38,891 nt of DNA, from assembly GCA_040752255.1 (NCBI GenBank), contig JBFMFD010000001.1, positions 1-38,891 on the forward strand, given 5' to 3'. The translations under genes were made by a program, and so were the position numbers. Under the pieces are notes generated by a model. The model was not told the origin of the DNA and did no database searches. It saw only the letters and a program-made list of their open reading frames with translations. Positions within the stretch are counted from its first letter, which is position 1. Each line of letters starts with the position of its first letter. Positions 3,927 to 32,952 of this stretch are shown one piece after another. The DNA comes from Armatimonadota bacterium (GTDB taxonomy: Bacteria > Armatimonadota > Fimbriimonadia > Fimbriimonadales > ATM1).

Positions 3927-3934
3927 GCCGACAA
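3927..3934 (+). promoter_or_regulatory. Weak sigma28 (FliA)-like -10 element GCCGACAA upstream of fliK
   Basis: GCCGACAA resembles the GCCGATAA consensus and lies 40 nt upstream of the fliK ATG. The TAAA -35 element is not found at the expected spacing. Confidence 0.2.
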
Positions 3935-3973
3935 TTCAGCCGGGAACGAATCCTTTCCAAGGAGGTGCAAACC

Positions 3974-5674: not shown

Positions 5675-5683
5675 GAGGAACGG

Positions 5684-6462: not shown

Positions 6463-6571
6463 GGAGCCGGACCCGCGCCTGCGTACCGCAGCCGGGAGGC
6501 ACCTCGGATACCGACAGTGAAGACGATGCTGTCGCTGACAACCAAACTACAACCATGGAGGTGCAATCAGA

Positions 6572-7852: not shown

Positions 7853-7875
7853 CTGCCTCGCTGAACCGCTCGCTC

Positions 7876-7911
7876 GGCCTCCCGCCTGCCCGGCGGGGGG
7901 CCATTGTTTTT
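7876..7911 (+). terminator. Rho-independent terminator closing the fliK-flgE module
   Basis: GGCCTCCCGCC-TGCCC-GGCGGGGGGCC forms an 11-bp stem with one G-U pair. It is followed by ATTGTTTTTG. Confidence 0.8.
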
Positions 7912-8025
7912 GCGAGATACTCCTCTCACAAGTGATGGTTCTTGGTCGGCTCGGAGCAGTTTTCGGCGAGCCCGCCCCATTTCCGCACGGCGTATGCCAC
8001 ACTAAGGGCGAAAGGAGGCAGAAGA

Positions 8026-8643
8026 ATGACCTTGGCATTGATAGCCGCGCTCGCCGGGATGAGTCAAGCCGGTGACGTCGTCCTGTGGGACAACGAGCTT
8101 CAGGCAAACGGCGTGTCGGGAATGGCGGTGTCTGGTCCGCGCTTTCCGACGACGCGCGTCGCGGACGACTTCATCGTTCCAGAGGGCCAGAGGTGGCACA
8201 TCAAGCGCTTCACCTACGTTGCAGCCAATGAACCCACGTGGAAGGACGGAGGCATCTCCGAGATCTGCGTGTGGTCTGATAACGGCGGCCGCCCGGACAA
8301 GACGGTAGCAGAAGGAATCTCCCCGCACTCGCGATCGTTTCAAACCGTGATTGATGGGATGGACTGCTACATCTACACGGTGAAGGGGCTTGACATCGTG
8401 TTGCCGCCGGGCCGGTATTGGATCGGCCCGCACCACCCCGAGGCGAGCGGCGAAGGCACCGCATGGTGGATGACGTCAAGCGGCGGCAAACGTGAGCCGG
8501 CGAACCTTCAGGGCTGGGTCTCACACGACTACCAAGACGGTAAAGGCAATTGGACTACACTCGACGGAAACGGCTGGGATGGAGGCTACTGGCATCAAGC
8601 ATTCCAGATCGGGGGCAGGGTTCTCCGGGGAGGCGAGCAATGA
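8026..8643 (+). CDS. Secreted protein of unknown function, paralog 1 of 3 (N-domain only)
   Basis: ATG 8026 is preceded by AAAGGAGG. The signal peptide is MTLALIAALAGMSQAG. It shares DVVLWDN, FP..RVADDF, YWIG.HHPE.SGEGTAWWMTS and WHQAF with the next two genes. The track start at 7942 is a TTG extension. Confidence 0.8.
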   Translation: MTLALIAALAGMSQAGDVVLWDNELQANGVSGMAVSGPRFPTTRVADDFIVPEGQRWHIKRFTYVAANEPTWKDGGISEICVWSDNGGRPDKTVAEGISPHSRSFQTVIDGMDCYIYTVKGLDIVLPPGRYWIGPHHPEASGEGTAWWMTSSGGKREPANLQGWVSHDYQDGKGNWTTLDGNGWDGGYWHQAFQIGGRVLRGGEQ

Positions 8644-9722
8644 CAGGGATACTGATTGCCGTTGCTGCGTTGGCGTCGCCTGTTCCGGCAGGCGGCAACG
8701 CAGACCAGCAGGACATGCTTTGGGACAACCAGCTCATCACGAACGGCGTTATGGCAAGGGCAGTGTCGCCGCCTGCGTTTCCGAACATCCGCGTGGTTGA
8801 CGACATCTTCGTTACGCCGGGAACCCAGTGGCACATCGAGTCGCTGAAGGCGGACCTCATTGAGGACTCCACTTGGACGCATGGTGGCCGCATTTCCGTT
8901 TACGTGTGGCTATCCGACGGCAACCGACCTCGAAACGGAAACGTGAACATGATCGCATTCTCGGAGAGGGTGGTCGAGCGCTTCCACACCGGTAACACCT
9001 ATTTCGGTCGCCCTGACTTCCACCATACGGCCCGCAACCTGGACATCACGCTGCCGTCAGGCCAGTACTGGATCGGCATCCGTCACCCGCTGGGAGGCGG
9101 CTCGGGCACCGCGTATTGGTTCACTACCGACGTGGCAGGCACGGACGGAGACGGGACTTCGACGGGCTTTTTCAGCCTTGACGCAGGGGGTACATTCAAC
9201 CCGGAAGGTAGCGGGTGGCACCATGCGTTCGAGCTCCGGGGGCACGAGGAGCCGACAGTCCCCGTCACCTCGATTCAAGTCGTTCGGGGAGAGCGGGTCT
9301 CGGGCGGCACGATCTCGCTGTCGCGGAGCGACGATGATCGCTACATCATCAGCGCTCGCCGGCCTACCGCAGTCGGGCAACCTTCCGTCGAGGTAATCGT
9401 CGAGGGTCGCGCTACGCCGGGCGACGTGACGTGGACTTCCTTCACGCTTGAGAGCAAGGCCACCGCGTGGCCGGTGAGGCAGCAAATCGAGTTGTGGAAT
9501 TTTGAATCGAACACCTGGAACTTGATCCACGAGCGGATCGCGATTGCCGACGACTTCTTCAGCTTCCGCCGCCTTCGGGCGAGGCGAAACGAGGCGCCGG
9601 GGCGATACGTCTCTGCGAATGGCACCGTCCGTGCGCGATTGACATGGTTCGACCTGGGAGTCACCAGCGTCGGCTGGACGGTTCAAATTGACCAAGCCGG
9701 ATGGCACGTGGTGGCGAACTAA
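8640..9722 (+). CDS. Secreted protein of unknown function, paralog 2 of 3 (N-domain plus shared C-terminal module)
   Basis: ATG 8640 overlaps the paralog-1 stop (ATGA) and is preceded by GGGGAGG. The signal peptide is MTGILIAVAALASPVPAGG. Shared motifs are DMLWDN, FPNIRVVDDI, YWIGIRHPLGGGSGTAYWFTT and WHHAFEL. Confidence 0.85.
   Translation: MTGILIAVAALASPVPAGGNADQQDMLWDNQLITNGVMARAVSPPAFPNIRVVDDIFVTPGTQWHIESLKADLIEDSTWTHGGRISVYVWLSDGNRPRNGNVNMIAFSERVVERFHTGNTYFGRPDFHHTARNLDITLPSGQYWIGIRHPLGGGSGTAYWFTTDVAGTDGDGTSTGFFSLDAGGTFNPEGSGWHHAFELRGHEEPTVPVTSIQVVRGERVSGGTISLSRSDDDRYIISARRPTAVGQPSVEVIVEGRATPGDVTWTSFTLESKATAWPVRQQIELWNFESNTWNLIHERIAIADDFFSFRRLRARRNEAPGRYVSANGTVRARLTWFDLGVTSVGWTVQIDQAGWHVVAN
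9255..9722 (+). other. Shared C-terminal module (about 155 aa), copy in paralog 2
   Basis: IQVVRGERVSGGTISLSRSDDDRYIISARRPTAVGQPSVEVIV...IELWNFESNTW...FFSFRR...GTVRARLTWFDLGVTSVGWTVQIDQAGWHVVAN. This is collinear with 10402..10878 and 30574..31032. Confidence 0.8.
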
Positions 9723-9744: not shown

Positions 9745-10878
9745 ATGAAGAGGAATACGGCCAACGACGCGAGGCTGTTCAAATGGCGCACGGCTTCGCC
9801 CTGCCTTTCGTTGCTCCCGTTGTTGCTCCTCACGCCAAATCCCGACCAGCGGGATGTGCTGTGGGACAACCACATCATTCTGAAGGGCGACATCACCGGC
9901 CGAGCGATCTCGCCGCCCGCGTTTCCTAGCATTCGAGTTGTGGACGACATTCCGGTCACGATTCGCACTCGCTGGCACGTTACGTCGGCATGGCTGAACA
10001 CGATCGAAGACGGCGCCTGGCGGCCCCGAGAAACGATGGAGCTCTTCGTTTGGAAACAAGCGCCGAGCGGTGGGGGCCCGCACCCCGGGCAGGACGGCAT
10101 CGTCGCGTGGCTGGAAGCCCCGCTTAGGCGTTCGGCCACCGGCGCTACGTACTTCGGTCGGGCGGCATACCTTCATGGCATCGAGGACTTGGACCTTGTC
10201 CTGGGCACTGACGCGAAGTTCGTCGGCTTCAGACACCCTGAAGGCTCCGGCTCGGGGACAGCCTATTGGATGACGAGCGACGGTAAAAACGACCACGGCC
10301 GGGGGCGGTTTCACTACTACAGCCTCGACCAGGGCGGGACCTGGATAAACGCCGGCATCCGGTGGCACAACTCGTTTATCCTCTACGGCTACGAGGAGCC
10401 GTCCGTGCCTCCCTCCTTCTTCGTCATCTCGCGTGGCGCTCACGTCTCCGGCGGGACGATCTCGCTTTCACGCGTGGACGACGATCGACTGGTCATCAGC
10501 CCGCGCCGGCCGATCGAGGTGAATGCGCCGTCAGCCGAGTTGATCGTCAACTCGAATGTTGGACCAAACTCCGGCGCGGCGTGGCTCTCCTTCACCCTGC
10601 TTTCCAACGTAACGGCGCAGGGTGTTGATCAAGAGGTGTGGTTTTGGGATCACGTGAACCGAAGATGGGTGCTGGCGCATTTCCGCCGTGCCGACACCGA
10701 GGAAGTCTTCAGCTTCAGGCGTTATCGAGAAGGCACCGTGTTTGACACCGACCCGACGCTGTTCGTCGCTGCGGACGGGACCGTTACCGCGCGCATCCGC
10801 TGGTTCGACCGGGGCGTGCCTTCGGTCGGCTGGACGGTGCAGGTGAACCAGGCGGGATGGCACGCCGTGCTCAACTGA
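9745..10878 (+). CDS. Secreted protein of unknown function, paralog 3 of 3 (N-domain plus shared C-terminal module)
   Basis: ATG 9745 is preceded by a GAGAAGAGGA RBS. The hydrophobic leader is CLSLLPLLLL. Shared motifs are DVLWDN, FPSIRVVDDI, RHPEGSGSGTAYWMTS and WHNSF. Confidence 0.85.
   Translation: MKRNTANDARLFKWRTASPCLSLLPLLLLTPNPDQRDVLWDNHIILKGDITGRAISPPAFPSIRVVDDIPVTIRTRWHVTSAWLNTIEDGAWRPRETMELFVWKQAPSGGGPHPGQDGIVAWLEAPLRRSATGATYFGRAAYLHGIEDLDLVLGTDAKFVGFRHPEGSGSGTAYWMTSDGKNDHGRGRFHYYSLDQGGTWINAGIRWHNSFILYGYEEPSVPPSFFVISRGAHVSGGTISLSRVDDDRLVISPRRPIEVNAPSAELIVNSNVGPNSGAAWLSFTLLSNVTAQGVDQEVWFWDHVNRRWVLAHFRRADTEEVFSFRRYREGTVFDTDPTLFVAADGTVTARIRWFDRGVPSVGWTVQVNQAGWHAVLN
10402..10878 (+). 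other. Shared C-terminal module (about 158 aa), copy in paralog 3
   Basis: FVISRGAHVSGGTISLSRVDDDRLVISPRRPIEVNAPSAELIV...EVWFWDHVNRRW...VFSFRR...GTVTARIRWFDRGVPSVGWTVQVNQAGWHAVLN. Confidence 0.8.
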
Positions 10879-17374: not shown

Positions 17375-18493
17375 ATGCTCGATCCACGTGTTACGAAACT
17401 GGCAAACCTCCTGTGCGAGCACAGCACGCGGCTGAAGGACGGGGACAACCTCCTCGTCGAGGCGTTTGACATTCCGCCCGAGTGCGTCGCGGAAGTGGTC
17501 CGCGTAGCGCGAGAGCATGGCGCAAACGTCGTCGCGCAGACCTACTCGACGCGGGTGCAGCGGGCGTTGTTGCTGCACATGAGCGAGCGGAACGCCGACC
17601 TGTGCGCGGAGGTTGACCGTTTTCGTATGGAGAAGATGGACGCCTACATCGCGCTTCGCGGCGCAGACAACGTGATGGAGGCAAGCGATGTGCCGACCGC
17701 CAACATGAAGATGTGGAACCAAAGGTACGGCGTGCCTGTACACTTTGAGGTTCGCGTGCCGAAGACACGCTGGGTCGTGCTCCGCTGGCCTACCCCGAGC
17801 ATGGCGCAGCAGGCGAGCACGAGCACCGACGCCTTCGAGGACTTCTACTTCCGCGTGTGCACTCTCGACTACGGCAAGATGGCGAAGGCGGTCGAGCCGC
17901 TGGTATCGCTGATGGAGCGCACGGATCGCGTTGAGATAACCGGCCCAGGAACCGACCTCTCGTTCAGCATCAAGGACATTCCGGTTGTGCCGTGCGTCGG
18001 CCTGCGGAACATCCCCGACGGGGAGTGCTTCACCGCGCCGGTGCGAGACTCGGTGAACGGGACCCTGCAGTACAACACGGACACGCTTTACCAGGGCAAA
18101 CTGTTCAAGAAGCCGAGACTCACCTTCAAAGATGGTCGCATCGTCGAGGTGAGCGCCGCCGAGATGACCGACGCGATGAACGAGGTGCTCGACACCGACG
18201 AAGGCGCGCGCTACATTGGAGAGTGGAGCCTCGGCTTCAACCCGCACATCCAGCACCCGATGCTCGATACGCTGTTCGACGAGAAGATTGCGGGGAGTTT
18301 TCACATGACGCCGGGGAACGCCTATGACGAGGCGGACAACGGCAACGACAGCGCGGTGCACTGGGACATGGTTTGCATCCAGCGCGCGGAGTACGGCGGG
18401 GGCGAGATTCGGTTTGACGGAGAGGTGATTCGCAAGGATGGCGTATTCGTTCACCCTGACCTTGCGGCTCTGAATCCGCAATCTCTCGCCTAG
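17375..18493 (+). CDS. M29-family aminopeptidase (AmpS/PepS type)
   Basis: LDPRVTKLANLLCEHSTRLKDGDNLLVEA..., GECFTAP, EWSLGFNP, HMTPGNAY, NDSAVHWDMV and GGGEIRFDGEVIRKDGVF are typical of thermophilic metalloprotease M29. Confidence 0.85.
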   Translation: MLDPRVTKLANLLCEHSTRLKDGDNLLVEAFDIPPECVAEVVRVAREHGANVVAQTYSTRVQRALLLHMSERNADLCAEVDRFRMEKMDAYIALRGADNVMEASDVPTANMKMWNQRYGVPVHFEVRVPKTRWVVLRWPTPSMAQQASTSTDAFEDFYFRVCTLDYGKMAKAVEPLVSLMERTDRVEITGPGTDLSFSIKDIPVVPCVGLRNIPDGECFTAPVRDSVNGTLQYNTDTLYQGKLFKKPRLTFKDGRIVEVSAAEMTDAMNEVLDTDEGARYIGEWSLGFNPHIQHPMLDTLFDEKIAGSFHMTPGNAYDEADNGNDSAVHWDMVCIQRAEYGGGEIRFDGEVIRKDGVFVHPDLAALNPQSLA

Positions 18494-20388
18494 CGAGAGG
18501 CCTGCGTGAGCGAAGCAAGCCCCTCGCGGGCGACGTCGTTTTGCGGGTTGATGCTTAGGGCGCGCTGATAGTGAAGCGCCGCGAGGTCTTTGCGCCCTGC
18601 CGCAACCAGGCTTTCGGCAACCTGCACCTCTGCCACGTCCCACGGCGGCAGAACGGAGAGCGCGGCCTCTACTTGCTCGAGGCCTTCGTCCACCGATCCG
18701 GTTCGGATCAGCGAGACGCCCAGGCGATACTGCGAGTTTGCGTCGCCGCTGTTGAGACGAAGCGCCTCGCGCAGGTGCGGAAGGGCGTGCCGGTATAGGC
18801 CGCCGTTGAAGAGATGAAGCCCATAGACGCGGTGCTCATCTGCGGCGGAAGCCTTCGGAATCGTGTTCGCCATCAACCGACCGACGAGCGCCTCGCGCGT
18901 GCTCTCGGTGCGAACGGTGTTGATCGCTTGCACCATCTCCTCCCACGGCTTGGCCGCCAGCGGGTCTGAGGCAACCGCAGAGGCGAGTGTCAGCGCAGCA
19001 CCGGCGGCGATCGCGTCGGCGGTCCTGCGGCACAAGCTCGCCAGCGGCGGAAGCGCGCGAGAGTCATCTGCTGCGGCGTGGTACACATTCGCGATGCGCA
19101 GCAGGGTGCTCGCCGGTGGGGTGTACTCCTGAGCCAACCGCAAGACATCGCCGAGCACTTCAACGGCGAGCGCGTGGTTTCCGAGAGCGGAGAGGTGCTC
19201 GGCAAGGCGCAACGAAACGATCAGCGCTGAATGTTCGCGAACGATGCCGTCCCACCGCCCGGGCCACGGCGCAGCGAGGTTCTCGTTCAGCTGGGTGGCA
19301 TCCTTGAGGCGGCGCGCGTCTGAGACGAGGTCCGCGGGCGCAATCGCGCCGGTGTACATTTTGACGATCCGACCGTTGCTGTTGACCAGGACGCTGCTTG
19401 GAAGAACGATATCCTGCTCGCGATCAACGAGAACGCGCTGCAGAGCCTGATAGAGCGTAAGCATCTGCTGGTCGGCGATTCCGGTGTCGAACCAGAAGCG
19501 GGCCTCTTGTACCTGCTTGCGCGCCGTATCTAGGTCCTTCGGCTCATCAACCGTCAGAGCGACGATGCGGATGCCGGCGGCTTCGAGGGACCTGCGCGCG
19601 CTTTGGAATTCACCCATCTCCTTCTTGCACGCGGCGCACCAGGATGCCCAGAAGTTGATCAGCGTGACACCCTCACCCACAAGCGGCAGCACGCCGCCTT
19701 CAAGCGACCGAGCACTCAGAATGGGCATGCGCGGCGGGTAGGCGAGGGCGACCGAGCCGGTGGGCGAGAAGTGAGCCTCTGGGATGCGCTCCTCCGTCCA
19801 AGAGAGCGGCTCGTCGAACGGTTGCGCCTCGGCGCCCGCGGCTCCCTCCGTGAGAACGTAGCGTCGGTTGGGTCGGATGCCCTCAAACGTCTGCGTTACT
19901 CCGCTGGGCCAGCGCACGCGTAGGGCGACCGGCGCATTGTGGCTTCCCAACCCGAAGTGGAGCCACTTAGTTCCCTGGGCAAGGAAGCCCGTGCCTGCTC
20001 TCACCGTGTCGTGCAGGGGCTTGCCGGCGCCGAGGACCTCGACCCGCGCGCCGACGGCGTCCTTGTTCGACTGCGTTCCTACAAGGCGGACGGCGATAGA
20101 GTTGCCGCCCGTCTCAGTCTGGTTGAGCAGCAGGCGGACTTGCGGGCCGGTGCGGTTTCGGAGCCAGACATCGAGGTCTCCGTCTCCGTCCCAGTCAACG
20201 AACACGACGGCTCGCGCATCGTCGGAATACAACAACCCGGACACGTAGGAGACGTCGTAGAAGCGTCCGGTGCCGGTGTTGATGAGGGCGACGTTCGGCT
20301 CGTGCCCGCTCCAGGAAAGCCCCTGCCTGAGTTGTGCCTGCAACGCGGACCAACTGGTCATGTACGCGGTCGGGTCTTGCCCCTTCAC
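18490..20388 (-). CDS. C-terminal part of a CRTAC1/ASPIC-UnbV-type protein: UnbV/ASPIC module, TlpA-like thioredoxin (WCAAC) and TPR repeats
   Basis: SWSGHEPNVALINTGTGRFYDVS...VDWDGDGDLDVWLRNRTGPQVRLLLNQ...NSIAVRLVGTQSNKDAVGARVEV is the UnbV_ASPIC signature. INFWASWCAACKKEM (19627..19638 encodes CAAC) is a redoxin motif. The C-terminus is TPR-like. The listed GTG start has no SD, and the ORF is in frame with 20425..22200. Confidence 0.8.
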   Translation of the reverse strand: MKGQDPTAYMTSWSALQAQLRQGLSWSGHEPNVALINTGTGRFYDVSYVSGLLYSDDARAVVFVDWDGDGDLDVWLRNRTGPQVRLLLNQTETGGNSIAVRLVGTQSNKDAVGARVEVLGAGKPLHDTVRAGTGFLAQGTKWLHFGLGSHNAPVALRVRWPSGVTQTFEGIRPNRRYVLTEGAAGAEAQPFDEPLSWTEERIPEAHFSPTGSVALAYPPRMPILSARSLEGGVLPLVGEGVTLINFWASWCAACKKEMGEFQSARRSLEAAGIRIVALTVDEPKDLDTARKQVQEARFWFDTGIADQQMLTLYQALQRVLVDREQDIVLPSSVLVNSNGRIVKMYTGAIAPADLVSDARRLKDATQLNENLAAPWPGRWDGIVREHSALIVSLRLAEHLSALGNHALAVEVLGDVLRLAQEYTPPASTLLRIANVYHAAADDSRALPPLASLCRRTADAIAAGAALTLASAVASDPLAAKPWEEMVQAINTVRTESTREALVGRLMANTIPKASAADEHRVYGLHLFNGGLYRHALPHLREALRLNSGDANSQYRLGVSLIRTGSVDEGLEQVEAALSVLPPWDVAEVQVAESLVAAGRKDLAALHYQRALSINPQNDVAREGLASLTQASR

Positions 20389-20396
20389 CGGCGACT

Positions 20397-20427
20397 GCGC
20401 CGCGACGCGGCGCCAGAAGAAGCTTCA
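20397..20427 (-). other. In-frame TGA (20425..20427) followed 11 nt later by a GC hairpin (20397..20413)
   Basis: The mRNA sense reads ...GAC GAC TTG TGA AGCTTCTTCTG GCGCCGCGTCGCGGCGC AG.... The hairpin has a 7-bp GC stem and a GUC apical loop. The reading frame is continuous on both sides (...TNTDADDL*SFFWRRVAAQSPVKGQDP...). Confidence 0.6.
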
Positions 20428-22200
20428 CAAGTCGTCGGCGTCGGTGTTGGTGATGAAGCCGTTCGGGCTGATGATATCCAGCCAGCCGTCGTTGTTCAGG
20501 TCGCCGAAGTGGGCGCCCCAGGCGAAGCGCCCCATCTCCGTGCGCGTCTCCATGGTTACATCGCTGAACGAGCCGTCGCCACGATTCTCGAAGAGACTGT
20601 TGCCGCGAGCGAAGTACTGAAGGTTCCTCGTGAACCCGCCGGTCGGCTCGAAGGCTCGTTGATACGTTACGCGGTTTCCTGCGGACGACCACATGTTCGT
20701 GACGTACAGGTCCATCAAGCCGTCTCGGTTGTAGTCTCCCCAAGAGACGCCCATCCCCGCGGCCTGATCCTGAACGCCTGCTTCTTCTGCACGCTCAACG
20801 AAGCGTCCGCCCTCGTTCACATACAGCTGATTCGGGCCAAAGTCGTTGGCGACGTAAAGATCTTGGTCGCCGTCGTTGTCGAAGTCTTCCCAAGCCGCGG
20901 CGAACGTCTGCCGATTGTTGTTGACGTTCAAGCCGACATCGTTCGTTACGTTTCGGAAGCGGAACGCACCGTCGTTCTTCAGCAGCGTGTTGGGCAGGCC
21001 CTGGTCAGAGTCGAAGATAGCCGCGCCGGTCGAGTTCGCCTGGCCTGAAGAGGTGTACTCGCAGAGATAGATGTCCACGAAGCCGTCTCGATCGTAGTCC
21101 GCGGCGGCCATTGAGGTCAACATGATGACTCGGTAGCGAGCCATCGGCTCGAACTTGCCGGTGCCGTCCCCTTTCATGAACAAGACGTGCGACACGGTGC
21201 CGACGACCAGGTCTTGGTTGCCGTCGTTGTCGAGGTCGAGGATCAGAGCGCTCGCCGTGTCGTTGAGCAGGTCTGCGCCGGACTCTCTCGAGGCGTCCCG
21301 TAGCGTTCCGGCGCCGGTGCGGAGGTACAGACGGTTCGGCAACCCGCCCGGCTGACACACGTACAGGTCGTCGAGGCCGTCGTTGTTGACGTCGCCAAAG
21401 GCGAAGCCGTAGTGCCCTGCGAGTGTGCCGCCCATTGAAAAGTCAAGTCCACCCCACCATCGCTCGAAGCCTTGATTGAGTTGCTCAAAGCTCTCGACAT
21501 CTTTGAAGGCGACCCTTGTAACCTCGCGCAGAAGCGGACGGGCGCGGCTGATCTCCTCGAACTCTTGCACGGTGAGGGACTTCAGCACGGGCTTATCGGG
21601 CCCTTTGGAAACGTCCCATGTGGCGGTCCACTTCGCGTTCTGCTGGACCACCCTGGTTGGTGAGCGCCCAGCGCCGAGATAGAGGAGGGTCGTTGTGCCT
21701 TCGGTTCCGACGACGTCGCTTCGGACTATCTTGAACTTGATCATGTCGACCGTCTCGCCGAGCGCCGCTCGCAGTTCGTTCCACGCGGATGCGACCGCGT
21801 CGGGACCCGTACCGGAGACGGGCGAGGCGGTGCCGTGGTGGGCGGTGATGCCGTCGCGCGCCCATGCGACTTCCACCCTCTTGGGCCTGAGTTCGGTCAG
21901 AGAAGCGCCGTCGGCGACAAACTCGGAGATCTCGCCACCCGAGGCGACCGCCTTGTCAATGGAGGAAAGCGCCTTACCCGCCGCGCTGTTCAGCGCCTCG
22001 CCCGCGCCCAAGTCGGCATCTTTCTGAGGGTCGAAGTAGGTGACCTCTTCGGCGATCCGCTCGTCCAACTTGACGTCAACAGCACCGAGCTCCTCGGGTC
22101 GGTACTCGACCGACGAGGTCTGAGCCTGGTCGCCGCCCGGAGAGCACGCCCCCCAGATCGCCGCCGACAGGAAGAAAACAGCCAGCTTGCGTGCCTGCAA
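20425..22200 (-). CDS. N-terminal part of the same CRTAC1/ASPIC-type protein: lipoprotein signal plus FG-GAP/VCBS repeats
   Basis: TTG start. MQARKLAVFFLSAAIWGAC is lipobox-like. The repeats read GDVNNDGLDDLYV, LDLDNDGNQDLVV, ADYDRDGFVDIYL, EDFDNDGDQDLYVAN, GDYNRDGLMDLYVTN and GDLNNDGWLDIISPNG. The ORF ends at an in-frame TGA. Confidence 0.85.
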   Translation of the reverse strand: MQARKLAVFFLSAAIWGACSPGGDQAQTSSVEYRPEELGAVDVKLDERIAEEVTYFDPQKDADLGAGEALNSAAGKALSSIDKAVASGGEISEFVADGASLTELRPKRVEVAWARDGITAHHGTASPVSGTGPDAVASAWNELRAALGETVDMIKFKIVRSDVVGTEGTTTLLYLGAGRSPTRVVQQNAKWTATWDVSKGPDKPVLKSLTVQEFEEISRARPLLREVTRVAFKDVESFEQLNQGFERWWGGLDFSMGGTLAGHYGFAFGDVNNDGLDDLYVCQPGGLPNRLYLRTGAGTLRDASRESGADLLNDTASALILDLDNDGNQDLVVGTVSHVLFMKGDGTGKFEPMARYRVIMLTSMAAADYDRDGFVDIYLCEYTSSGQANSTGAAIFDSDQGLPNTLLKNDGAFRFRNVTNDVGLNVNNNRQTFAAAWEDFDNDGDQDLYVANDFGPNQLYVNEGGRFVERAEEAGVQDQAAGMGVSWGDYNRDGLMDLYVTNMWSSAGNRVTYQRAFEPTGGFTRNLQYFARGNSLFENRGDGSFSDVTMETRTEMGRFAWGAHFGDLNNDGWLDIISPNGFITNTDADDL

Positions 22201-22307: not shown

Positions 22308-23741
22308 TTACCAGGTAGTCCGGATGGTGTACCTCACGACCTTCTGCTCGTCGGGCTGTAGGCGCAAGCTGTAGCGGAAGGTGTTCGAGTCCATCTTCTC
22401 GCTCTGCTGCGACTCGGAGACGATCTCCCAGTCGCTCCAGCCGTGCTCGATGACCTCGACGGTCTCGGCGACCTTCTTGCGATTTCGAACTGTAATTTCG
22501 AAGGTCTCCTCAACGACGTTCGACGCGATTCGCCGGAAGGATGTCCGCTTGCGCTCTGCGACGATGTCGAAGGCGTCGCCGATGTAGAGGCGAATCTTCT
22601 CTTCGCGCGGCGTGTGGTCGATCTGGTCCTCTCCGAGCATCTGCACCTGCCCTGAGGTATCCCTCTTGTAGACCCTAACCTTGCCCTTAGGCAGGGGCAT
22701 GCCGAGTCGGTTCTGGTCGCTGTTTGCAACCTCGACAACGATGTTGGCTTTGACGTTCGGATCTGTTGCGTATCCCTCACCGGGGCGATACGACCTGCCG
22801 TACCCCCTCCAGACCGACTGCTGCCCTTCGACGATGAGCCGCTTGGTTACCGCGGCGCCCTGCGCGGAGAGCAGGCTGATCTGCTTCGTCTCTCGGTTCC
22901 GCACGGTAGCCGGTCGCCCGAGCGTGTAGAGGTGATACTCGAACAGGGTCTCCTCGGCGAAGCCGAGGTCCGCTCGTGCCTGTTCCGGCATTCCTGCCCC
23001 GCCGCGACCTCCGAACTGGCGCGCCGGTTGGATGCGCCGCACGTCGCCGGCGATCAGTTTGAGCGTTGCGTTGTTGTAGGTCGCGCCGGACTGGTTGTTG
23101 ATGGTGACCCAGCCGTTGAGGTCCGCCATCGTGTCGTCGGCGCTCAGCGTGAGCACGTAGTCCGCCGACCAAGTGATGTTCTCTGTCAGGTAGGCGAGTT
23201 CGATGTTCCTTGCGCCACCGGTCGGCGCGAGGATGTCCCACATCAGGGTGGGCTTACTGATGAGCCCCTCTGGAAGTTCGAGCACTTCGATCGTTCCCGT
23301 TGGGTTGAGGATGAACCTGCCGTCATCCGTTTGAAGCACCAGGCCGCTGTACGTTTGCATCGCGCCACTCCCGGTGTTGACGACTCTGCCGGGAGCGCTC
23401 AGAAGAACGCCCTCCGTCGTTATCATCTGTCCGGAATCGAGCAGTTGCCGAAGGCGGATGCGCTTCCCGATAGACTTGGCAAGGATGCTCTCCGGCGACA
23501 GCAGGTCATATTGGTAGTTCTGTTCCAGCACTTCGATCGGCCCACCGGTGAGCGGTCGAATCGTTACGCTGGTCGGGTCAATTCTTTCGGCGACATCCTC
23601 GATTCGCAACTCCTGCCTGCCCTGCTGCAGGTTGACGGAGCGGACCTCTTTGACCAAGCCGAAGTTGGCGTTGTAGATGGTGATTTCGACTGATTGCGGC
23701 GCGGCCGCCACAATCAGTCCGGCGATCGTCAGTGTCAGCAT
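22308..23741 (-). CDS. DUF4139-like secreted protein
   Basis: An AAGGAGGAG RBS lies upstream. The N-terminus reads VEITIYNANFGLVKEVRSVNLQQGRQELRIEDVAERIDPTSVTIRPL...VLEQNYQYDLLSPESILAKSIGKRIRL. The C-terminal ...TFEITVRNRKKVAETVEVIE... pattern matches my memory of the DUF4139/DUF4140 family. Confidence 0.6.
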   Translation of the reverse strand: MLTLTIAGLIVAAAPQSVEITIYNANFGLVKEVRSVNLQQGRQELRIEDVAERIDPTSVTIRPLTGGPIEVLEQNYQYDLLSPESILAKSIGKRIRLRQLLDSGQMITTEGVLLSAPGRVVNTGSGAMQTYSGLVLQTDDGRFILNPTGTIEVLELPEGLISKPTLMWDILAPTGGARNIELAYLTENITWSADYVLTLSADDTMADLNGWVTINNQSGATYNNATLKLIAGDVRRIQPARQFGGRGGAGMPEQARADLGFAEETLFEYHLYTLGRPATVRNRETKQISLLSAQGAAVTKRLIVEGQQSVWRGYGRSYRPGEGYATDPNVKANIVVEVANSDQNRLGMPLPKGKVRVYKRDTSGQVQMLGEDQIDHTPREEKIRLYIGDAFDIVAERKRTSFRRIASNVVEETFEITVRNRKKVAETVEVIEHGWSDWEIVSESQQSEKMDSNTFRYSLRLQPDEQKVVRYTIRTTW

Positions 23742-24960: not shown

Positions 24961-25566
24961 GTCTCACGGTATCCGGTTGTGCTGGCGAGCGAAAGCCCCC
25001 GCAGGCGCGAGTTGCTGTCGAAGATACTCGGGGAATTCGACGTGGTGCCCTCGGGTGTTCCCGAGGATGTGCCTGAGCGGGGGGAGCCGGAGCGCATCGC
25101 GAAACGCCTCGCAAGGGCGAAGGCGCTCGGCGTGGCGATAGCACGGCCGGGCGCGCTGGTCATCGGCGCCGACACGGTTGTCGCAATCGGTGACTTGCTG
25201 CTCGCGAAGCCGGGGACGCGCGAGGACGCCGTGCGGATGCTGATGACTCTCAGCGGGCGCGAGCACACGGTTACCACCGGCGTCGCGCTCGTTTGGCCCA
25301 GTGCGGATGGGAAGTCGGCCGGCAAGCACGCTTTCGCGGACACTGCTCGCGTTCGGTTCCGCCGCATCTCCAGCGATGAAGCGGCCGCCTACGTCGAGAT
25401 CGGCGAGCCGATGGACAAGGCCGGAGCGTATGCGATACAGGGCGGAGCGGCGCGGTTCGTCGAGTCGGTGGAGGGCGACACTGACACGGTCATAGGACTG
25501 CCGGTCGCCGCCCTGCGAGAAGCGCTGCTGCGGCTCCGTCTGGCGGTCGAGTTCGCCGAGCGTTAG
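24958..25566 (+). CDS. maf: Maf-family nucleoside triphosphate pyrophosphatase (septum formation protein)
   Basis: VVLASESPRRRELL, VIGADTVV, LAKPGTREDAVRMLMTLSGREHTVTTGVAL and DKAGAYAIQGGAARFVESVEGDTDTVIGLP. The track start at 24898 is an extension into moeB. Confidence 0.92.
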   Translation: MVSRYPVVLASESPRRRELLSKILGEFDVVPSGVPEDVPERGEPERIAKRLARAKALGVAIARPGALVIGADTVVAIGDLLLAKPGTREDAVRMLMTLSGREHTVTTGVALVWPSADGKSAGKHAFADTARVRFRRISSDEAAAYVEIGEPMDKAGAYAIQGGAARFVESVEGDTDTVIGLPVAALREALLRLRLAVEFAER

Positions 25567-27731
25567 CCGCCGGGGGGTGGCGGGTCGCTGAACCGCCTCC
25601 GAGCGCGCTCCCTCGCTTGCTGCATTTGCCGGCGCAGTTCCTCGGGCAGGGAGTCGAACGGTCCGAACTCCGCTTTGGGGTCCGAAGTCGCGCCGCCGGC
25701 CTTGACGGTAAAGATGTCGTTCCGCGTGAGCGCAATCTCGAATGAGTACGCCTCGAGGGTGGCTGCTCTGAAACCGGAGAGCGCAACCGAGTCATCCCCT
25801 TCGAACACCTCAGCGAAGCCGTACGCTTCCGGGGACATTGCGAACGAGAACGCGGGCTGGCCGCCGAACGCCAGTTGCGCCTCCACGCCTGGGCGTACCC
25901 CGTGCTGGAGGCGAATCTCGGACCCGGACGGGATACCGGCTGGAAAGCGTTGCGTGAACTCGTCGTCGGGACGCTCGCCTTCCGAGAACATATCCTCCAT
26001 TGCGCTTTGCATCGCGGCGGAGAAGAAGTCATCCATGTAGAGGTTCAGAACGAGCGGCTCGTCTTCCACGAGGTAGAGGTACCGGTCAAGGTGCCCGCGT
26101 GCGTCGTTCGGTAGCAGGTCGCGCGTAACCGTCCGCCCCTGCTTCAGCGCCTCCTTCAACGTCGGCGAGAGGCTGCCCCACATGCGACAGAACGAGATGC
26201 CGGGCAGGTCAAGCCCGCCCTCCAGCAATGTGCCCAGGCTGAACATTGCGAACATGATCGCGGGCGAGGTCGCCTGCCGATCGGTGAGCCGCAGGATAGC
26301 GGAGGAGAACGAGTCGAAAGTGATGCCGCCGAGTCGCTCCTTCTCTTCGAGTAGCCGCTTCAGAACGCTGCGAGGAACCGTTGTTGCGCGGGCGAGCGCG
26401 TAGGGCGACGTGCGAACCGTGATCCAGGGACCGGCGTACGACCAGCCGGCGCCCATGGACCTTGCCATCGAATCGAGGAACAGCGCGGGGCTGTCGGCAG
26501 ACACTCCGAAGGTGCCGAACCCGCCCATCGCATGCGCGTCGTACGCATCGGAGATGAAGCAGACGTCCATGGCCTTTGCGAATTCCACCATTACGTCGCC
26601 AAACAGCTGCAGCGGCTCGGAGGAGCCGAACAGGTTCTTCAGCATGTCCACCATGACGAAGTCATCCTCGCCGCTCGAGGCGAGGACGAACTTCTTCACC
26701 GATTCGGGGGCGGACCAGGCTTCCTCGAAGCGCGCAGGGAGGCCCTCAGGCCGTTGCGGCTTGGCTTCGGCAGCATCGGGCTCTTCGCCAAACATGTCAA
26801 ACGCGTAGCCAAACAAGCCCTGCTCCTCCCGGTGGAGAATCGTGCCGTTCCCGCTCAGGAATTGGAAAGAGACGTCGGGGCCGGGCTGTCGCATTAGAAA
26901 GATGAAGCCTCCTCCCGCCCGTTTCACAACCGCACGAACGGCGCGTACTGCTTGCGGGTCGAAGCGGGGAGCTCCCTCCGGCGCATCGGGCATCTCCACA
27001 TCGTCGAAGATGGCGTCGTTGAACTGTGCAATCTCCTGGATGAGAGCCGGCAACTGGTCGATTACGGTGCGCGGCATCGGGCGCTGCAGTGCGGTCGGGT
27101 GCGTTGAGTACACCAGCTTGCCGAGCCGTTCGAGGTCAAGCGCGTCGCGCGTGCTCATCTGGGCGACGAGGAGAGCCTCCAGCCGCGTGCCGGGCGACAC
27201 CTGTTCGCTGAGATCCATGAGCCTGTTCCAGAGACGATAGCTCTCTTCGCTTTCGTCGTCAGGCATTTCGGCGATCTTCTTCTGCAACTCAGCGAGCTCG
27301 GCGCGCAGCTTTGCAAGGGCCTCCGGCGTACTTGTTTGGAGACGCTCTAGCGCCGCCTTCTTCGCTTGCTGGAACGGCTCGAGGATCAACTGCTCCAACT
27401 CGCGCCTTTCCTGGGCGGCAGCTTCGGCGGACTGCGCGAGCGTGTAGCCTTCGTCCGTCTTGCGCCACTCCCACCCGAAGTGCAGCGCGATGCGCGCGAG
27501 CACCTCGTGCGCAGGTCGCTCCTTCGCATAGAGCGTGATCAAGTCCTCGCGCAAGTCGTCTTGGATGCCGAGAGCGACGCCCGTGCGTTGCGCGAGGTCG
27601 TCGAGGACCTCTTTCATCGTCTTGACGGAGGCTTCGATCGTGACCGGCGGCTTCAGCCGGTCGTCGAGGGAGAGGTCCGCCTGAGGAGCGGCGGACGCCA
27701 GTGCAAGGGCGCAGCCCAGTAGGATAGTCAT
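25563..27731 (-). CDS. Large secreted protein of unknown function, paralog A (STN-like N-terminal domain plus coiled coil)
   Basis: An AAGGAG RBS lies upstream and the signal peptide is MTILLGCALALASAAPQA. The protein is collinear with 28337..30424. Shared segments include RPAHEVLARIALHFGWEWRKTDEGYTL, VYSTHPTALQRPMP, ISDAYDAHA, WITVRT...LARATTVPR and a basic C-terminal tail ending in prolines. Confidence 0.8.
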   Translation of the reverse strand: MTILLGCALALASAAPQADLSLDDRLKPPVTIEASVKTMKEVLDDLAQRTGVALGIQDDLREDLITLYAKERPAHEVLARIALHFGWEWRKTDEGYTLAQSAEAAAQERRELEQLILEPFQQAKKAALERLQTSTPEALAKLRAELAELQKKIAEMPDDESEESYRLWNRLMDLSEQVSPGTRLEALLVAQMSTRDALDLERLGKLVYSTHPTALQRPMPRTVIDQLPALIQEIAQFNDAIFDDVEMPDAPEGAPRFDPQAVRAVRAVVKRAGGGFIFLMRQPGPDVSFQFLSGNGTILHREEQGLFGYAFDMFGEEPDAAEAKPQRPEGLPARFEEAWSAPESVKKFVLASSGEDDFVMVDMLKNLFGSSEPLQLFGDVMVEFAKAMDVCFISDAYDAHAMGGFGTFGVSADSPALFLDSMARSMGAGWSYAGPWITVRTSPYALARATTVPRSVLKRLLEEKERLGGITFDSFSSAILRLTDRQATSPAIMFAMFSLGTLLEGGLDLPGISFCRMWGSLSPTLKEALKQGRTVTRDLLPNDARGHLDRYLYLVEDEPLVLNLYMDDFFSAAMQSAMEDMFSEGERPDDEFTQRFPAGIPSGSEIRLQHGVRPGVEAQLAFGGQPAFSFAMSPEAYGFAEVFEGDDSVALSGFRAATLEAYSFEIALTRNDIFTVKAGGATSDPKAEFGPFDSLPEELRRQMQQARERARRRFSDPPPPGG

Positions 27732-28336: not shown

Positions 28337-30424
28337 TCAGTGGCGCGGGGGCGGAGCGCGGCGCGCCCTCTCCGCCTCGATGGCGCGCCGCAGCCGCTCG
28401 CCTAGGGGGCCGGGAAGGCGCTCAAGCGACTCGTATCGCACCGACACGTCCACAGTCGCGCCTCCGAAGACGATGTGGATGACCGGGCCACTCGGTAAAG
28501 CAACGCGGAGGAGATTGACTTCGAGTTCCGCGGGATGATACTGGTATCGAGTGTGCCCTCGTTCTGTCGCAGTAACCCATAGCCGAGCCGCCGACTCCAC
28601 GCTCCAAATGACGCGAATCCTAGATTCCCCCTCGACATGGGCCACCCCACCAGCGGCATCGGAGGTCAAAGTCAGAAGTGTGTCGGCTGGCATCCCATTA
28701 GGAATGACTTGAGTCCCTTCAATGTCCCGCTGTGAATCGTCCGGTGGGGTAGGAACACGCTCGCTCCAACGAAACAAATACGTCAGTAGCTCAAAGTGGT
28801 CGCAGTCCTCCAGGCCGTGGAGAAGGAAGAAGCGGTTCCACTCACGCTTCGTCCGTTCGGGAAGGCTTCCCCAGCGAATCTCGTACCGAGTGCCGACGGT
28901 GTCGTGCATACTCCTGCCCAGGGCTTGCCAGCCGCGTGCGAATGCCGCGGTCGCGCGATTGACCTCGAACAAACTGCTACTCATCGTTAGTTGCCAGGGG
29001 AGCACACCCCTAGTCACCTGAACGCTCGCCAATCCCGCTACGAATTCAGCCATTGCACTGAATTCCACGGCCCCCCGCTGAACGACGCGGGCGAACGGGT
29101 AGAGATGCTCGCGTGGCACGGTAGCCGCCCGCACAAGGGGCCAGTTCTCGGTGCGAAACGTGAGCCAGCCGTCAGTCAGTTCAACCGTGGCCCCCCTGGC
29201 GTGCGAGAGGGCTTCGAAAAACCCCTCGACAGTATCCAGGGAACTCCCAGCGGCATGCAGCGGCAAGACGATGTGAGCGTCATATGCGTCTGAGATGAGG
29301 TTTACTCCGACCCTCGATGCGGCAGCCAGCATTGCCGATGTCACCGGCTCGAGGGGCTCGACCGAGACGAGTCCTGGGTACAAGCTCGCTCGTAGCTCTG
29401 AGCGCTCGCTGTCGGAGAACGGACTCATTCCGACAAGAATCCGTCTGATGCTCGTCGGGGGATTCCACGGCTCGCGAAACGCCTCCGGCAGGTCCTTTGG
29501 CAGCCGGCGCTCCGCATCTGGGGGACCCTCTTCGTGCGTTGGCCCTTGTGGTTCATCAAACGGTACAGGATCTGCTAACCCTTCAAGCAGCAGTCCATCC
29601 GGTCCGAACCACGCGGTGCGCAGTTTCACCCCTTCAGGCCCCAGCGCACCCACTTGAACGCCCTCGACGGCAACCCGGACGGCGACGACCGAGGGTGGGC
29701 TAACCTGACGATCAGGTTGCTCGACGCGCAGCAATGCGAGTTCTCCAAGCAGGGGTAGCTCGGCCATCACTGCCGGTGGAAGCGCTCGCTGGGCGGCGGT
29801 CGGGTGGGAGGAGAATACCATCTTCCCGTCGCTCTCGATCCGTGCAAAGTCGCTTTCTGTCAGCGAACACAGAAGCAACGCGCCAAGCCAAGAGTCACCG
29901 TCCAAATAGGGAGACAGCTCCCACCACTCATCCCGCAAAGCCCATCGTTTATCGATGTCGGTCTCCACAGCCAGGGCAGCGACGAGCTCCCGCGCACGGG
30001 CGAGCATCCGCTCGGCCCCCGACACCTGCGCCAGGTACCGCCTCGCGTCCTCCTGTGCATCGAAGTAAGGCTGGAGGAGTTGTTTGCGCAACGCTTTTTC
30101 TTCGGCAACTCGCGACTCCGCCGGCCGATACAGCCGGTAACCGTCGTCCTTCTCCTCCCACGCCCAACCGAAGTGGCGCGCAATACGCTCCATCACTTCG
30201 TGTGCCGGGCGGGATGCCACTCGCAGCGTCGCCAAGTCTTGCCGTATGTCGTCCGCCGCCTCGATCCGGACGTTGGTCTTGCCGGATAGGTCCATTAGGA
30301 TCGTCTCGATGCTCTTGGCGGGATGCTCGAGCGAAACCGCAACCTGCAACCTCGGGTCATCCCGAAGGTCCACCCCCAGAGACGAACCGAGCATCGTTGC
30401 CGCGAGCGCAAGCGCGGACAGCAT
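28337..30424 (-). CDS. Large secreted protein of unknown function, paralog B (STN-like N-terminal domain plus coiled coil)
   Basis: The signal peptide is MLSALALAATMLGSSLG. It contains RPAHEVMERIARHFGWAWEEKDDGYRL, VFSSHPTAAQRALP, ISDAYDAHI, WLTFRT...LVRAATVPR and the C-terminal tail RRAIEAERARRAPPPRH. Confidence 0.8.
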   Translation of the reverse strand: MLSALALAATMLGSSLGVDLRDDPRLQVAVSLEHPAKSIETILMDLSGKTNVRIEAADDIRQDLATLRVASRPAHEVMERIARHFGWAWEEKDDGYRLYRPAESRVAEEKALRKQLLQPYFDAQEDARRYLAQVSGAERMLARARELVAALAVETDIDKRWALRDEWWELSPYLDGDSWLGALLLCSLTESDFARIESDGKMVFSSHPTAAQRALPPAVMAELPLLGELALLRVEQPDRQVSPPSVVAVRVAVEGVQVGALGPEGVKLRTAWFGPDGLLLEGLADPVPFDEPQGPTHEEGPPDAERRLPKDLPEAFREPWNPPTSIRRILVGMSPFSDSERSELRASLYPGLVSVEPLEPVTSAMLAAASRVGVNLISDAYDAHIVLPLHAAGSSLDTVEGFFEALSHARGATVELTDGWLTFRTENWPLVRAATVPREHLYPFARVVQRGAVEFSAMAEFVAGLASVQVTRGVLPWQLTMSSSLFEVNRATAAFARGWQALGRSMHDTVGTRYEIRWGSLPERTKREWNRFFLLHGLEDCDHFELLTYLFRWSERVPTPPDDSQRDIEGTQVIPNGMPADTLLTLTSDAAGGVAHVEGESRIRVIWSVESAARLWVTATERGHTRYQYHPAELEVNLLRVALPSGPVIHIVFGGATVDVSVRYESLERLPGPLGERLRRAIEAERARRAPPPRH

Positions 30425-30573: not shown

Positions 30574-31032
30574 CTAACGGTCGGTAATCACCTGCCACCC
30601 CGCCATGTCAACGTGCGCTCGCCAGCCTGCGCTCGTGATGCCCCTGTCGTGGAATCCGAGGCGAAGCCGCATGGCGCGGCTACCCGCCTGGATGAACCGC
30701 TCCGGCGATTCCAGAACGGTGAACGTGAGCATCGAGTCCTCGCGCGTGGCTTCCTCCTCGCCGACGGTGACCCAGCGGCCGTTCGCGAAGTCGAACAGTT
30801 CGACGCGAACTACCGCAGGCCCCTCGGTTGTGGAGACCTCCACAACCGCCCGCAAGCCGTGCGGCTGATCCACCGGCGATGAGCCGGCCACTTCGACTTC
30901 GGCGGATGCGGCGGCGATCTCGGTGGGTCGGCGCGCTTCGATGCGCATCCGCCGGTCGTCGCTTCCAAACAGGTCCTCAAGCCCACCATCCAGGCGCACG
31001 CCGCGCGTGATGCTGAACTCACTCGGTCGCAC
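30574..31032 (-). other. Shared C-terminal module (about 152 aa), copy in the cupredoxin-propeller protein
   Basis: FSITRGVRLDGGLEDLFGSDDRRMRIEARRPTEIAAASAEVEV...VELFDFANGRW...MLTFTV...SRAMRLRLGFHDRGITSAGWRAHVDMAGWQVITDR. It aligns position by position with 9255..9722 and 10402..10878. Confidence 0.8.
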
Positions 31033-32868
31033 GTCCACGATCGTATGGTGGGATGGATCCTTCTGCTCATCCGTCAGAAGCCGAATCCATCCTTCGACCT
31101 CGGCGGACAGCCTGCCGGAGCCGACGAGCTCCACAGTCGGTTGAATCCAGCCGTCATGCGTCATCGGCAACGGCTTGACCCCCTGGCCGCCTGTCCCGTC
31201 GGTGACTCCGGCTCCGTCGCTTCCGTTCGCCAGGAGAATGGTTCCGACGATCGCGGCATCTTGTGCGCTGCCGTCGCCGTTGGGGTCGGGGTCAATGATG
31301 GTCAGCACGTTGGCATGCTGATTGGTCACGTAGGCGTAGTAGCCTCCGCCCAGTTTCGCGCCCCAATTGACGCCGTGCGTGCCAGCCGGTGTGGGGATGA
31401 ACTTGACGACTTCGTCGGTGCGCGTGTCAATGATGGCGACATGGTCTGCTGCGCCCGTGTTGCTGCGCGGCACGGTCGTGAGCGAGAAGACGGCGGTGGC
31501 GACCCACTTCTCATCCGGGCTTACGGGCGTTTGAATGGGCACCTGCAAGGTGTCCAGAAGCCCGAAGCCGGTCCGACCGTCCGGCGTGAGCGCGACGGGA
31601 ATGTTCTTTTCGAGCCTGAGGTCATCTACGTTGAGCACGGTTACCATGCCCGAGACCGCGTTGGCGATGTACGCCTTGTGGACTCCGCGCACATGACACT
31701 CCCCGACGGCGATCGGCATCAGCAGCGCCTTGCGAATCGGGTCGTTGGCATCGAACGTGAACTCTTGCATGACGGCTCCGGTGAAGCTATTCATCACGCT
31801 GACCGAACCGCCAAGTCCGATGCCGGTGAACACGTTCGGCACAACGACGCGATCCCCCGAGCCGCAAGTAAGCCAATGTCCATGCGGGTGAGTGTGCCCG
31901 TTGCCGGTTCGCGTCGAGGAGATGACGGTCAGGCCGCCGTTGTCGCGTACCTTGACGAGGTCGTTGTCGGCGCTCAGCGGGATCGTCAGCACGCCCTGCT
32001 GCGAGGAGCCGGGCGTTGGGATCGTGATGATGTGAGTGGGCGCCTCACCGACGGCTATGCTGTCGGTAATCCGCCCCGTCTCGCGCTCAATCTTGTTGAT
32101 CCACTTTCCGAACCAGTTCGAGTTGTAGACCGTGTTCAACTCGAAGTTCGCCCACATGTTGTGCGGGTTGTTCCACATGCCGTCCGCCGCCAAGCCGTTG
32201 ATCTCGCGCTCGACGGTGAAGGTGGCAGCGTCAAGGATCGTGATCGTGCCTGGCTTCAAAACGTCGTTTGCGTCCGTCTGGCCGGGAACACGCTCGAACT
32301 GAGTGTTGATCCAGACTTCGCCCACTCCGGGAACGGCCGGGCGTCGCTCGGCACTTGAGTCGAGGATGTCCCACTTGGCGGCCTTCTCGTCGTCGGTGGG
32401 GGCGATCGTGGTCATCACGGCGAGGACGGCCTCCGCCGGCAGGCTGTCCCTGCCGAGGTGTCGAATGAACGGCAGCGAGCCCGCCGTAACGTCCGGGATC
32501 TGTCCACTGCCGTCACGAACCGCCACGACCGCCGTCATGTAGGGATGGATTTTGCAGACGAAAACGTAAACCCCCGGTGTATCGAACTCAACCGAGAGGC
32601 TCCCGTTCTGCGACTTGTCCTGGTCCATGGTCACACCCGAGCCCTCCGGCTTGATGACCAGCGTTACCGTGTGCCGCGTGTTCGTGCAGCAGCCGTTGAT
32701 GACGAAGTCCACGCGGTCACCGCTGTTGACGACCGAGACCGGCCCGCCGGTAGTCTCCGACCGGAACCAGTTGCCTGGCTCGTCGGTGAGAAAGAAAGTG
32801 TCGGCGCTGTCCCGTGTAGCAAGCGGCGCTCCGCCTGCGACGAGGACTGCGAGTAGGGTCGAAAGCAT
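30574..32868 (-). CDS. Secreted cupredoxin (amicyanin-type Cu site) + YVTN-type beta-propeller + shared C-terminal module protein
   Basis: ATG 32868 is preceded by AAGGAGGAAA with a 6-nt spacer (9 nt from the AGGAGG core to the ATG); the track TTG start at 32895 is an extension. The signal peptide is MLSTLLAVLVAGG. Type-1 Cu ligand pattern: NTRHTV ... GVYVFVCKIHPYMTAVV (Cys-x2-His-x2-Met, 32536..32556). Propeller repeats: KAYIANAVSGMVTVLNV, HVAIIDTRTDEVV and YYAYVTNQHANVLTIID. A His cluster GHTHPHGHW lies at 31873..31896. Confidence 0.8.
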   Translation of the reverse strand: MLSTLLAVLVAGGAPLATRDSADTFFLTDEPGNWFRSETTGGPVSVVNSGDRVDFVINGCCTNTRHTVTLVIKPEGSGVTMDQDKSQNGSLSVEFDTPGVYVFVCKIHPYMTAVVAVRDGSGQIPDVTAGSLPFIRHLGRDSLPAEAVLAVMTTIAPTDDEKAAKWDILDSSAERRPAVPGVGEVWINTQFERVPGQTDANDVLKPGTITILDAATFTVEREINGLAADGMWNNPHNMWANFELNTVYNSNWFGKWINKIERETGRITDSIAVGEAPTHIITIPTPGSSQQGVLTIPLSADNDLVKVRDNGGLTVISSTRTGNGHTHPHGHWLTCGSGDRVVVPNVFTGIGLGGSVSVMNSFTGAVMQEFTFDANDPIRKALLMPIAVGECHVRGVHKAYIANAVSGMVTVLNVDDLRLEKNIPVALTPDGRTGFGLLDTLQVPIQTPVSPDEKWVATAVFSLTTVPRSNTGAADHVAIIDTRTDEVVKFIPTPAGTHGVNWGAKLGGGYYAYVTNQHANVLTIIDPDPNGDGSAQDAAIVGTILLANGSDGAGVTDGTGGQGVKPLPMTHDGWIQPTVELVGSGRLSAEVEGWIRLLTDEQKDPSHHTIVDVRPSEFSITRGVRLDGGLEDLFGSDDRRMRIEARRPTEIAAASAEVEVAGSSPVDQPHGLRAVVEVSTTEGPAVVRVELFDFANGRWVTVGEEEATREDSMLTFTVLESPERFIQAGSRAMRLRLGFHDRGITSAGWRAHVDMAGWQVITDR

Positions 32869-32952
32869 GGTACATTTCCTCCTTGTTTGATTCAAAGGAG
32901 GGCGCCAAGAGCGCGTTTGATACAGGTTCGCCGCTCGTCCGAGCGGTGGCGG

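Follow-up and report, generated by a model that had tools for sequence, protein, structure and literature searches.

A C-terminal module with a predicted beta-jelly-roll fold shared by diverse, putatively exported proteins of Armatimonadota: a candidate surface-retention domain

Module-bearing genes and their surroundings in the window

The analyzed DNA, hereafter called the window, comprises all 38,891 nucleotides at positions 1..38,891 of contig JBFMFD010000001.1 (assembly GCA_040752255.1) from an Armatimonadota bacterium (Fimbriimonadia; Fimbriimonadales; ATM1). Three genes within the window code for proteins (A, B and C) which end in a common module (Table 1). The module of A is 33% identical to that of B over 153 aa (BLASTP, E = 3e-24) and 30% identical to that of C (E = 4e-19). 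This similarity is far above chance and bears out the shared C-terminal block which the first-pass annotation had seen in three proteins, its coordinates differing from the profile boundaries by only a few codons. The motif blocks listed there (RG, GG, L..SDD, RRP, ELF/W, W, R.R, D.G, GW and D..GW) turned out to be the best-conserved columns of the wider family. A profile search of the window did not detect a fourth module copy. It had also been claimed that each of the three modules is attached to a different N-terminal part (passenger). This is correct for A, whose passenger has no similarity to those of B and C. By contrast, B and C are paralogs over their full length (47% identity, E = 2e-99), and thus the window shows only two independent passengers.

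Table 1. Positions of the module-bearing proteins, their parts and adjacent features in the window
Feature	Position	Strand	Remarks
Flagellar hook cluster	3833..7852	+	fliK, flgD, small 'Flagellar_put' gene, flgE; upstream of the paralog array
GC-rich hairpin and T-run	about 7865..7915		closes the flagellar cluster
Paralog 1 (N-domain without module)	8026..8643	+	BLASTP match to B; no profile hit
Protein B	8640..9722	+	RBS GGAGG, ATG at 8640
Passenger of B: short hydrophobic N-terminus and ~180-aa N-domain of unknown family	8640..9224	+	N-domain shared with C and paralog 1
Module of B	9225..9722	+	profile E = 3.6e-52, end 1 aa before stop
Protein C	9745..10878	+	RBS, ATG at 9745
Passenger of C: signal-peptide-like N-terminus and B-type N-domain	9745..10377	+	B vs C alignment
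Module of C	10378..10878	+	profile E = 5.6e-45, end 1 aa before stop
FG-GAP/ASPIC-UnbV protein, second FG-GAP protein, DUF4139/DUF4140 protein	18490..22200 and 22308..23741	-	first protein fused to thioredoxin-like domain and TPR repeats
Paralogous proteins X1 and X2 (~700 aa)	25563..27731 and 28337..30424	-	directly downstream of A
Protein A (773 aa)	30574..32895	-	signal-peptide-like N-terminus, cupredoxin, YVTN-type beta-propeller, module
Module of A (residues ~616-773 and stop codon)	30574..31050	-	profile envelope ends 2 aa before stop
Passenger of A: signal-peptide-like N-terminus, cupredoxin and YVTN-type beta-propeller	31051..32895	-	NCBIfam and PDB sequence hits

The N-terminus of protein A, read directly, is MNQTRRKCTMLSTLLAVLVAGGAPLA. 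Searches of NCBIfam with this protein revealed matches to beta_rpt_yvtn (6e-8), pseudoazurin (2e-4) and amicyanin (6.5e-3), while the PDB sequences matched by its cupredoxin domain were the cupredoxin of copper nitrite reductase and pseudoazurin. The type-1 copper loop of the domain reads C-K-I-H-P-Y-M, which is of the amicyanin type (C-x2-H-x2-M). The passenger of A may be an exported redox protein. A weak similarity of A to lactonase-type NosZ (NCBIfam E = 0.0028) lies far below the model cut-off. The proteins X1 and X2 have signal-like N-termini and are separated by an ORF of 152 aa. By eye, a short N-terminal region of both resembles STN/secretin-N domains; Pfam or PDB matches were not obtained. 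X1 and X2 were considered as partner machinery of the module but rejected, since homologs are absent from the 20 genomic module loci described below. An FG-GAP protein of the window, itself without the module, is 27% identical to the passenger of the module protein at locus L019.

Proteins B and C belong to a tandem array, the first gene of which encodes paralog 1. Paralog 1 is 36% identical to B (E = 6e-32), but the match is confined to the N-terminal domain of about 180 aa, and paralog 1 ends where the module would start. The N-domain of the three proteins contains the motifs LWDN, SPP.FP..RV.DD and W.I and gave no match in Pfam, NCBIfam or the PDB. Paralogs with this type of N-domain, with and without the module, are also arranged in tandem at the loci L004 (2090..3535) and L005 (7104..7760) of two Armatimonadota MAGs. 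The existence of such proteins lacking the module, as well as of paralog 1, indicates that the module is a separable, modular unit. In Logan, three contigs (the longest of 83.8 kb) contain a gene for a protein of 243 aa, P0001, in which the N-terminal ~64 residues correspond to the beginning of paralog 1 and are fused directly to the C-terminal ~180 residues of B. Originating from a closely related population, this protein keeps the signal-like N-terminus and the module and looks like the product of a deletion by recombination between tandem paralogs. The array was judged not to be linked to the flagellar hook operon, given the terminator-like hairpin behind flgE and the separate RBS in front of every gene of the array; the RBS of paralog 1 (AAAGGAGG, ATG at 8026) is located downstream of the hairpin. 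As the flagellar cluster ends in a hairpin and T-run, the paralog array is probably a separate transcription unit.

Family size, position and passengers of the module

An exhaustive search of 1.84 billion representatives with the three-copy profile yielded 1,625 protein clusters at E <= 1e-3, so that the module is not confined to the three window proteins. Stricter cut-offs retained 499 proteins (E <= 1e-10) and 15 proteins (E <= 1e-30). Of the 1,625 hits, the best ~150 provided the details on position, passengers and residues given in the following. In a word-indexed protein search, the three-copy profile retrieved three and a 38-copy profile six proteins, all of them near-orthologs, and an exact-sequence look-up of protein B remained without a match. 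Comparison of the module with Pfam (E <= 10), NCBIfam (38 modules, E <= 10) and the PDB sequences gave no credible match either. The Pfam families GH114_assoc and Kelch_4, each found in three of 38 module members with E >= 0.0017, were regarded as noise, and the Kelch matches of the PDB sequence search as spurious since they comprise a stretch of only 24 residues. Sequence relatives were not detected on IMG/VR viral contigs with the patterns tried, nor was a description of the domain found in the literature. In line with the first-pass annotation, which had called it a candidate new domain, the module constitutes a large and new family for which neither Pfam nor NCBIfam holds a model, and it is a clear candidate for a new entry in these libraries.

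All hits for which an organism is named (P0153, P0154, GIV01471.1, GIV01722.1 and RMG23490.1) originate from Armatimonadota; GIV01471.1 and GIV01722.1 are encoded on one Fimbriimonadales contig of 2.02 Mb. Two subfamily peptide patterns identified 20 module loci among 185,579 GTDB species genomes, two of them with a second copy. The 20 loci are all located in three Armatimonadota MAGs, which contain at least 10, 7 and 3 loci, respectively, these numbers being lower bounds as both patterns are narrow. The window itself is Fimbriimonadales-like as judged from its UvrA, the named relatives of which (66-77% identity) all belong to Armatimonadota. The family appears to be restricted to a single phylum, Armatimonadota (Fimbriimonadia-type genomes), judging from few named hits and a pattern-limited genome scan.

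Each of the best 151 hits possesses one significant copy of the module, and tandem or N-terminal copies did not occur among them. In 150 of these proteins, the module envelope ends 0-4 residues before the C-terminus, which largely confirms the strictly C-terminal position claimed at the outset. At the DNA level, all 23 complete genomic copies (20 loci and the window) are followed by the stop codon within 0-2 residues. The distance between the conserved W152 and the end of the protein amounts to 3-7 residues in 146 of 147 modules and to exactly four in 98. The sole exception is P0082 (251 aa), an N-terminally truncated fragment with an internal module; behind it come about 110 aa with Cys/Asp-rich repeats and a tail resembling dockerins (DVNGNG..D, DINHDGVVDV).

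To the module, a wide variety of passengers is attached. After removal of the last 155 aa, 127 proteins fell into 51 BLAST groups, and there are therefore at least 51 passenger groups. Pfam families detected on 106 passengers include FG-GAP (7), Peptidase_S8 (6), PD40 (6) and SBBP (6) as well as DPPIV_N, GSDH, PQQ_2, Peptidase_M28, Peptidase_C25, beta-helix and others, none of which is common to all. Representatives of 30 groups comprised propellers, FG-GAP, S8, GSDH, BNR, C-type lectin, LVIVD and NHL proteins, while 17 of the 30 remained without any Pfam match. Catalytic families of the GH, PL and CE classes were encountered neither in the 30 representatives nor among the 25 Pfam families found most often in the 106 proteins. 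One module cluster bears the name carboxypeptidase B in its source. A crude test for signal peptides, which required a hydrophobic 10-mer behind a K/R in the N-terminal 45 aa, was positive for 73 of 110 full-length module proteins, compared to seven of 110 interior controls. Many proteins that failed the test appear to have truncated starts. Hence, the enrichment at the C-termini of signal-peptide-like proteins with diverse passengers, for which the first-pass annotation had proposed to look, was indeed found. The profile of ~155 residues provides a simple sequence marker for a large part of the exported proteome of Armatimonadota, including proteases, propellers, redox proteins and adhesin-like repeats.

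A low-complexity linker or a conserved cleavage motif was not found upstream of the module. Within the 30 aa preceding it, several unrelated hits share the sequence (V/M)R(V/L)RFSA.D....S..E.G.D.F.I....C directly before the module. This recurrent motif suggests that another small beta-sandwich domain is often situated in front of the module.

Predicted fold and conserved residues

An AlphaFold2 model calculated with 38 diverse modules as alignment reached a pLDDT of 97.2 and a pTM of 0.90 (pLDDT 82.6 with three sequences only) and comprises 11 strands and two short helices. According to this model, the module is predicted to be an autonomous beta-jelly-roll domain of ~155 residues. Foldseek comparison with the PDB yielded neighbours with E values of 1e-6 to 1e-4, TM scores of 0.45-0.69 and identities of at most 17%, among them phi812 baseplate modules, a chondroitin-sulfate CBM, CBM4-2, CBM15, CBM16, CBM22, CBM29 and CBM61, but also SGBP-B, MAM domains and domain III of Cry toxins. 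In the BFVD, the best matches were tail, baseplate and fibre proteins of phages (TMq up to 0.79, rmsd 2.5 A, 18% identity). The predicted fold is of the galactose-binding-like/CBM jelly-roll type, in which binding modules predominate; this should be understood as resemblance of folds and not as family membership. The first-pass annotation had named a confident match to a known carbohydrate-binding domain as evidence against a sorting role. A CBM-like jelly-roll was obtained (identity <= 17-18%), but a confident match to a known CBM family was not.

Conservation was determined over 147 modules. G17 and G22 are invariant (100%), followed by D105 and D148 (97% each), D31 (95%), W143 (94%), W152 (93%), G137 (91%), L27 (90%), E71 (88%), R130 (87%), Q81 (84%), R99 (83%), F119 (82%), R118 (80%), W93 (78%) and D32 (72%). 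In the strands 6, 8, 10 and 11, every other position tends to be hydrophobic, the charged and aromatic residues of the conserved set lying in between. Judging from this periodicity of the strands, the conserved residues are probably exposed on one solvent-facing sheet, as in the clefts of type-B CBMs. Several conserved acidic residues of the loops (S30-D31-D32, D105 and D135) would possibly suit a structural Ca2+ site. Such sites are found in many CBMs.

Possible function and comparison with known systems

Armatimonadota are a poorly studied diderm phylum. Armatimonadetes have been listed among the diderm Terrabacteria whose outer membrane is tethered to the cell wall by proteins of the OmpM/SlpA type (PMC9388160). 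A description of a surface-display or cargo-sorting mechanism of this phylum was not found, and sortase or secretion genes were not found next to the 23 module genes (20 loci and the window). Likewise, a recurrent neighbour gene family could not be identified at these loci; the apparently conserved neighbours were attributed to orthologous synteny among the three MAGs and to antisense shadow ORFs.

The interpretation we prefer, albeit tentatively, is that the module serves as a surface-retention handle by binding to a constituent of the envelope or matrix of the producing cell itself. Fused once, and as the last element, to many unrelated proteins exported by the Sec pathway, it would act after export as a common handle for retention or anchoring. 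The binding face would be formed by the conserved polar and aromatic residues D31/D32, E71, W93, R99, D105, R130, W143, D148 and W152, possibly together with a structural Ca2+ site, and its target would be one shared constituent of the cell's envelope or matrix, a glycan being the most plausible candidate. In this way, proteins as different as proteases, propellers, redox proteins and those with adhesin-like repeats might be held on the cell surface instead of being lost by diffusion. In the window, the proteins tethered would be the blue-copper/propeller protein A and the tandem paralogs B and C. That the conserved site is kept across unrelated passengers, most of which are not carbohydrate-active, suggests one common ligand. 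Moreover, the CBM/galactose-binding-like fold favours a binding (anchoring) module over an export signal of the T9SS type. The idea of a sorting or anchoring domain, put forward in the first-pass annotation, is therefore plausible, but its anchoring half is better supported than its sorting half. If the ligand is a polymer of the envelope, the module could be used as a handle for surface display and as a probe for this polymer. A cultured relative, Fimbriimonas ginsengisoli, makes both the ligand and the question of retention versus cleavage testable.

The near-absolute terminal position deserves attention, since it is more typical of sorting signals, while binding modules are generally not confined to the extreme C-terminus. 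It is conceivable that the module directs export or sorting from the C-terminus in the manner of the T9SS CTD of Bacteroidota (Por_Secre_tail, types A and B), being read by a dedicated outer-membrane translocon or attachment enzyme of Armatimonadota and perhaps cleaved. We regard this as unlikely and give the same low weight to the more specific assumption of a tag for an Armatimonadota-specific system, analogous to T9SS/CTD or exosortase/PEP-CTERM, that secretes across the outer membrane or attaches proteins covalently to it. What keeps a signal of this kind viable is that the module is almost always terminal, occurs many times in a genome and seems to be confined to one phylum. These properties are shared by the T9SS CTD, likewise a beta-sandwich that forms the very end of many unrelated proteins with signal peptides. 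Single terminal copies in all but one of the best 151 hits and the fixed spacing behind the last conserved Trp fit this explanation as well, as does the cargo (C25, S8 and M28 peptidases, FG-GAP proteins and propellers), which resembles that of T9SS or PEP-CTERM. On the other hand, neither the four window proteins (E <= 1) nor the 38 modules (E <= 10) matched TIGR04183 (type A), TIGR04131 (type B) or the models of short C-terminal sorting tags in NCBIfam. The T9SS CTD has an Ig-like fold of seven strands and ~70-100 aa, whereas the module, which belongs to a different phylum, is twice as large and is predicted to form a jelly-roll whose neighbours are binding modules; there is no CTD structure among its top 50 PDB fold hits. 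PEP-CTERM, LPXTG and GlyGly-CTERM tags are composed of a short motif, a hydrophobic helix and a basic tail, while in the module proteins the chain terminates with the last beta-strand. Neither a cleavage motif or linker before the module nor a recurrent neighbour gene or a T9SS-like partner next to the module genes was found, which also argues against a sorting signal, as does P0082 with its internal module and dockerin-like tail. Should the module nevertheless be a secretion tag, it would point to a new secretion or attachment system.

Binding might also be directed outwards. An ordinary CBM targeting an external polysaccharide or the surface of other organisms (substrate or prey), and not the producer's own envelope, would agree with the conserved Trp, Arg and Asp residues and with the structural similarity to glycosaminoglycan-binding CBMs and phage receptor-binding modules. 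Compared to CBM4/CBM22 (CenC-like) and CBM15, 16, 29 and 61, the module is alike in its length of ~150 aa, the two-sheet beta-jelly-roll and the conserved aromatic and acidic residues, and Foldseek assigned a probability of 1.0 (E 1e-5 to 1e-4, TM 0.5-0.6). However, identities to these modules are as low as 10-17%, and neither the Pfam CBM models nor the PDB sequences gave a match. Contrary to typical CBMs, it is single-copy and C-terminal without tandem, N-terminal or (apart from P0082) internal copies, has been seen only in Armatimonadota and, in the passengers surveyed, is not attached to CAZymes but to proteases, propellers, redox proteins and unknowns. We thus have doubts about an environmental CBM, which seems improbable. 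Even less probable, in our opinion, is a protein-protein module, be it for docking to an S-layer or outer-membrane protein, for oligomerization or as an intramolecular chaperone or prodomain. Contacts between proteins are the mode of action of MAM domains and phage baseplate modules, both neighbours of the predicted fold, and C-terminal PPC-type domains of secreted peptidases provide a precedent. MAM domains (meprin, enteropeptidase) and PPC/P-domain types likewise are beta-sandwiches following secreted peptidases, and MAM is among the top fold hits, but there is no sequence match and the range of passengers is far wider than peptidases. A chaperone fits badly with passengers of unrelated folds, and the conserved acidic/aromatic surface would suit a small common ligand at least as well. 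In structure, the module comes closest to the receptor-binding jelly-rolls of phage tails, baseplates and tail fibres (phi812 baseplate, 9eui/9euf; PDB TMq 0.62-0.69). These phage modules bind polymers of the cell surface, whereas the context of the Armatimonadota module is cellular, on Sec-exported proteins.
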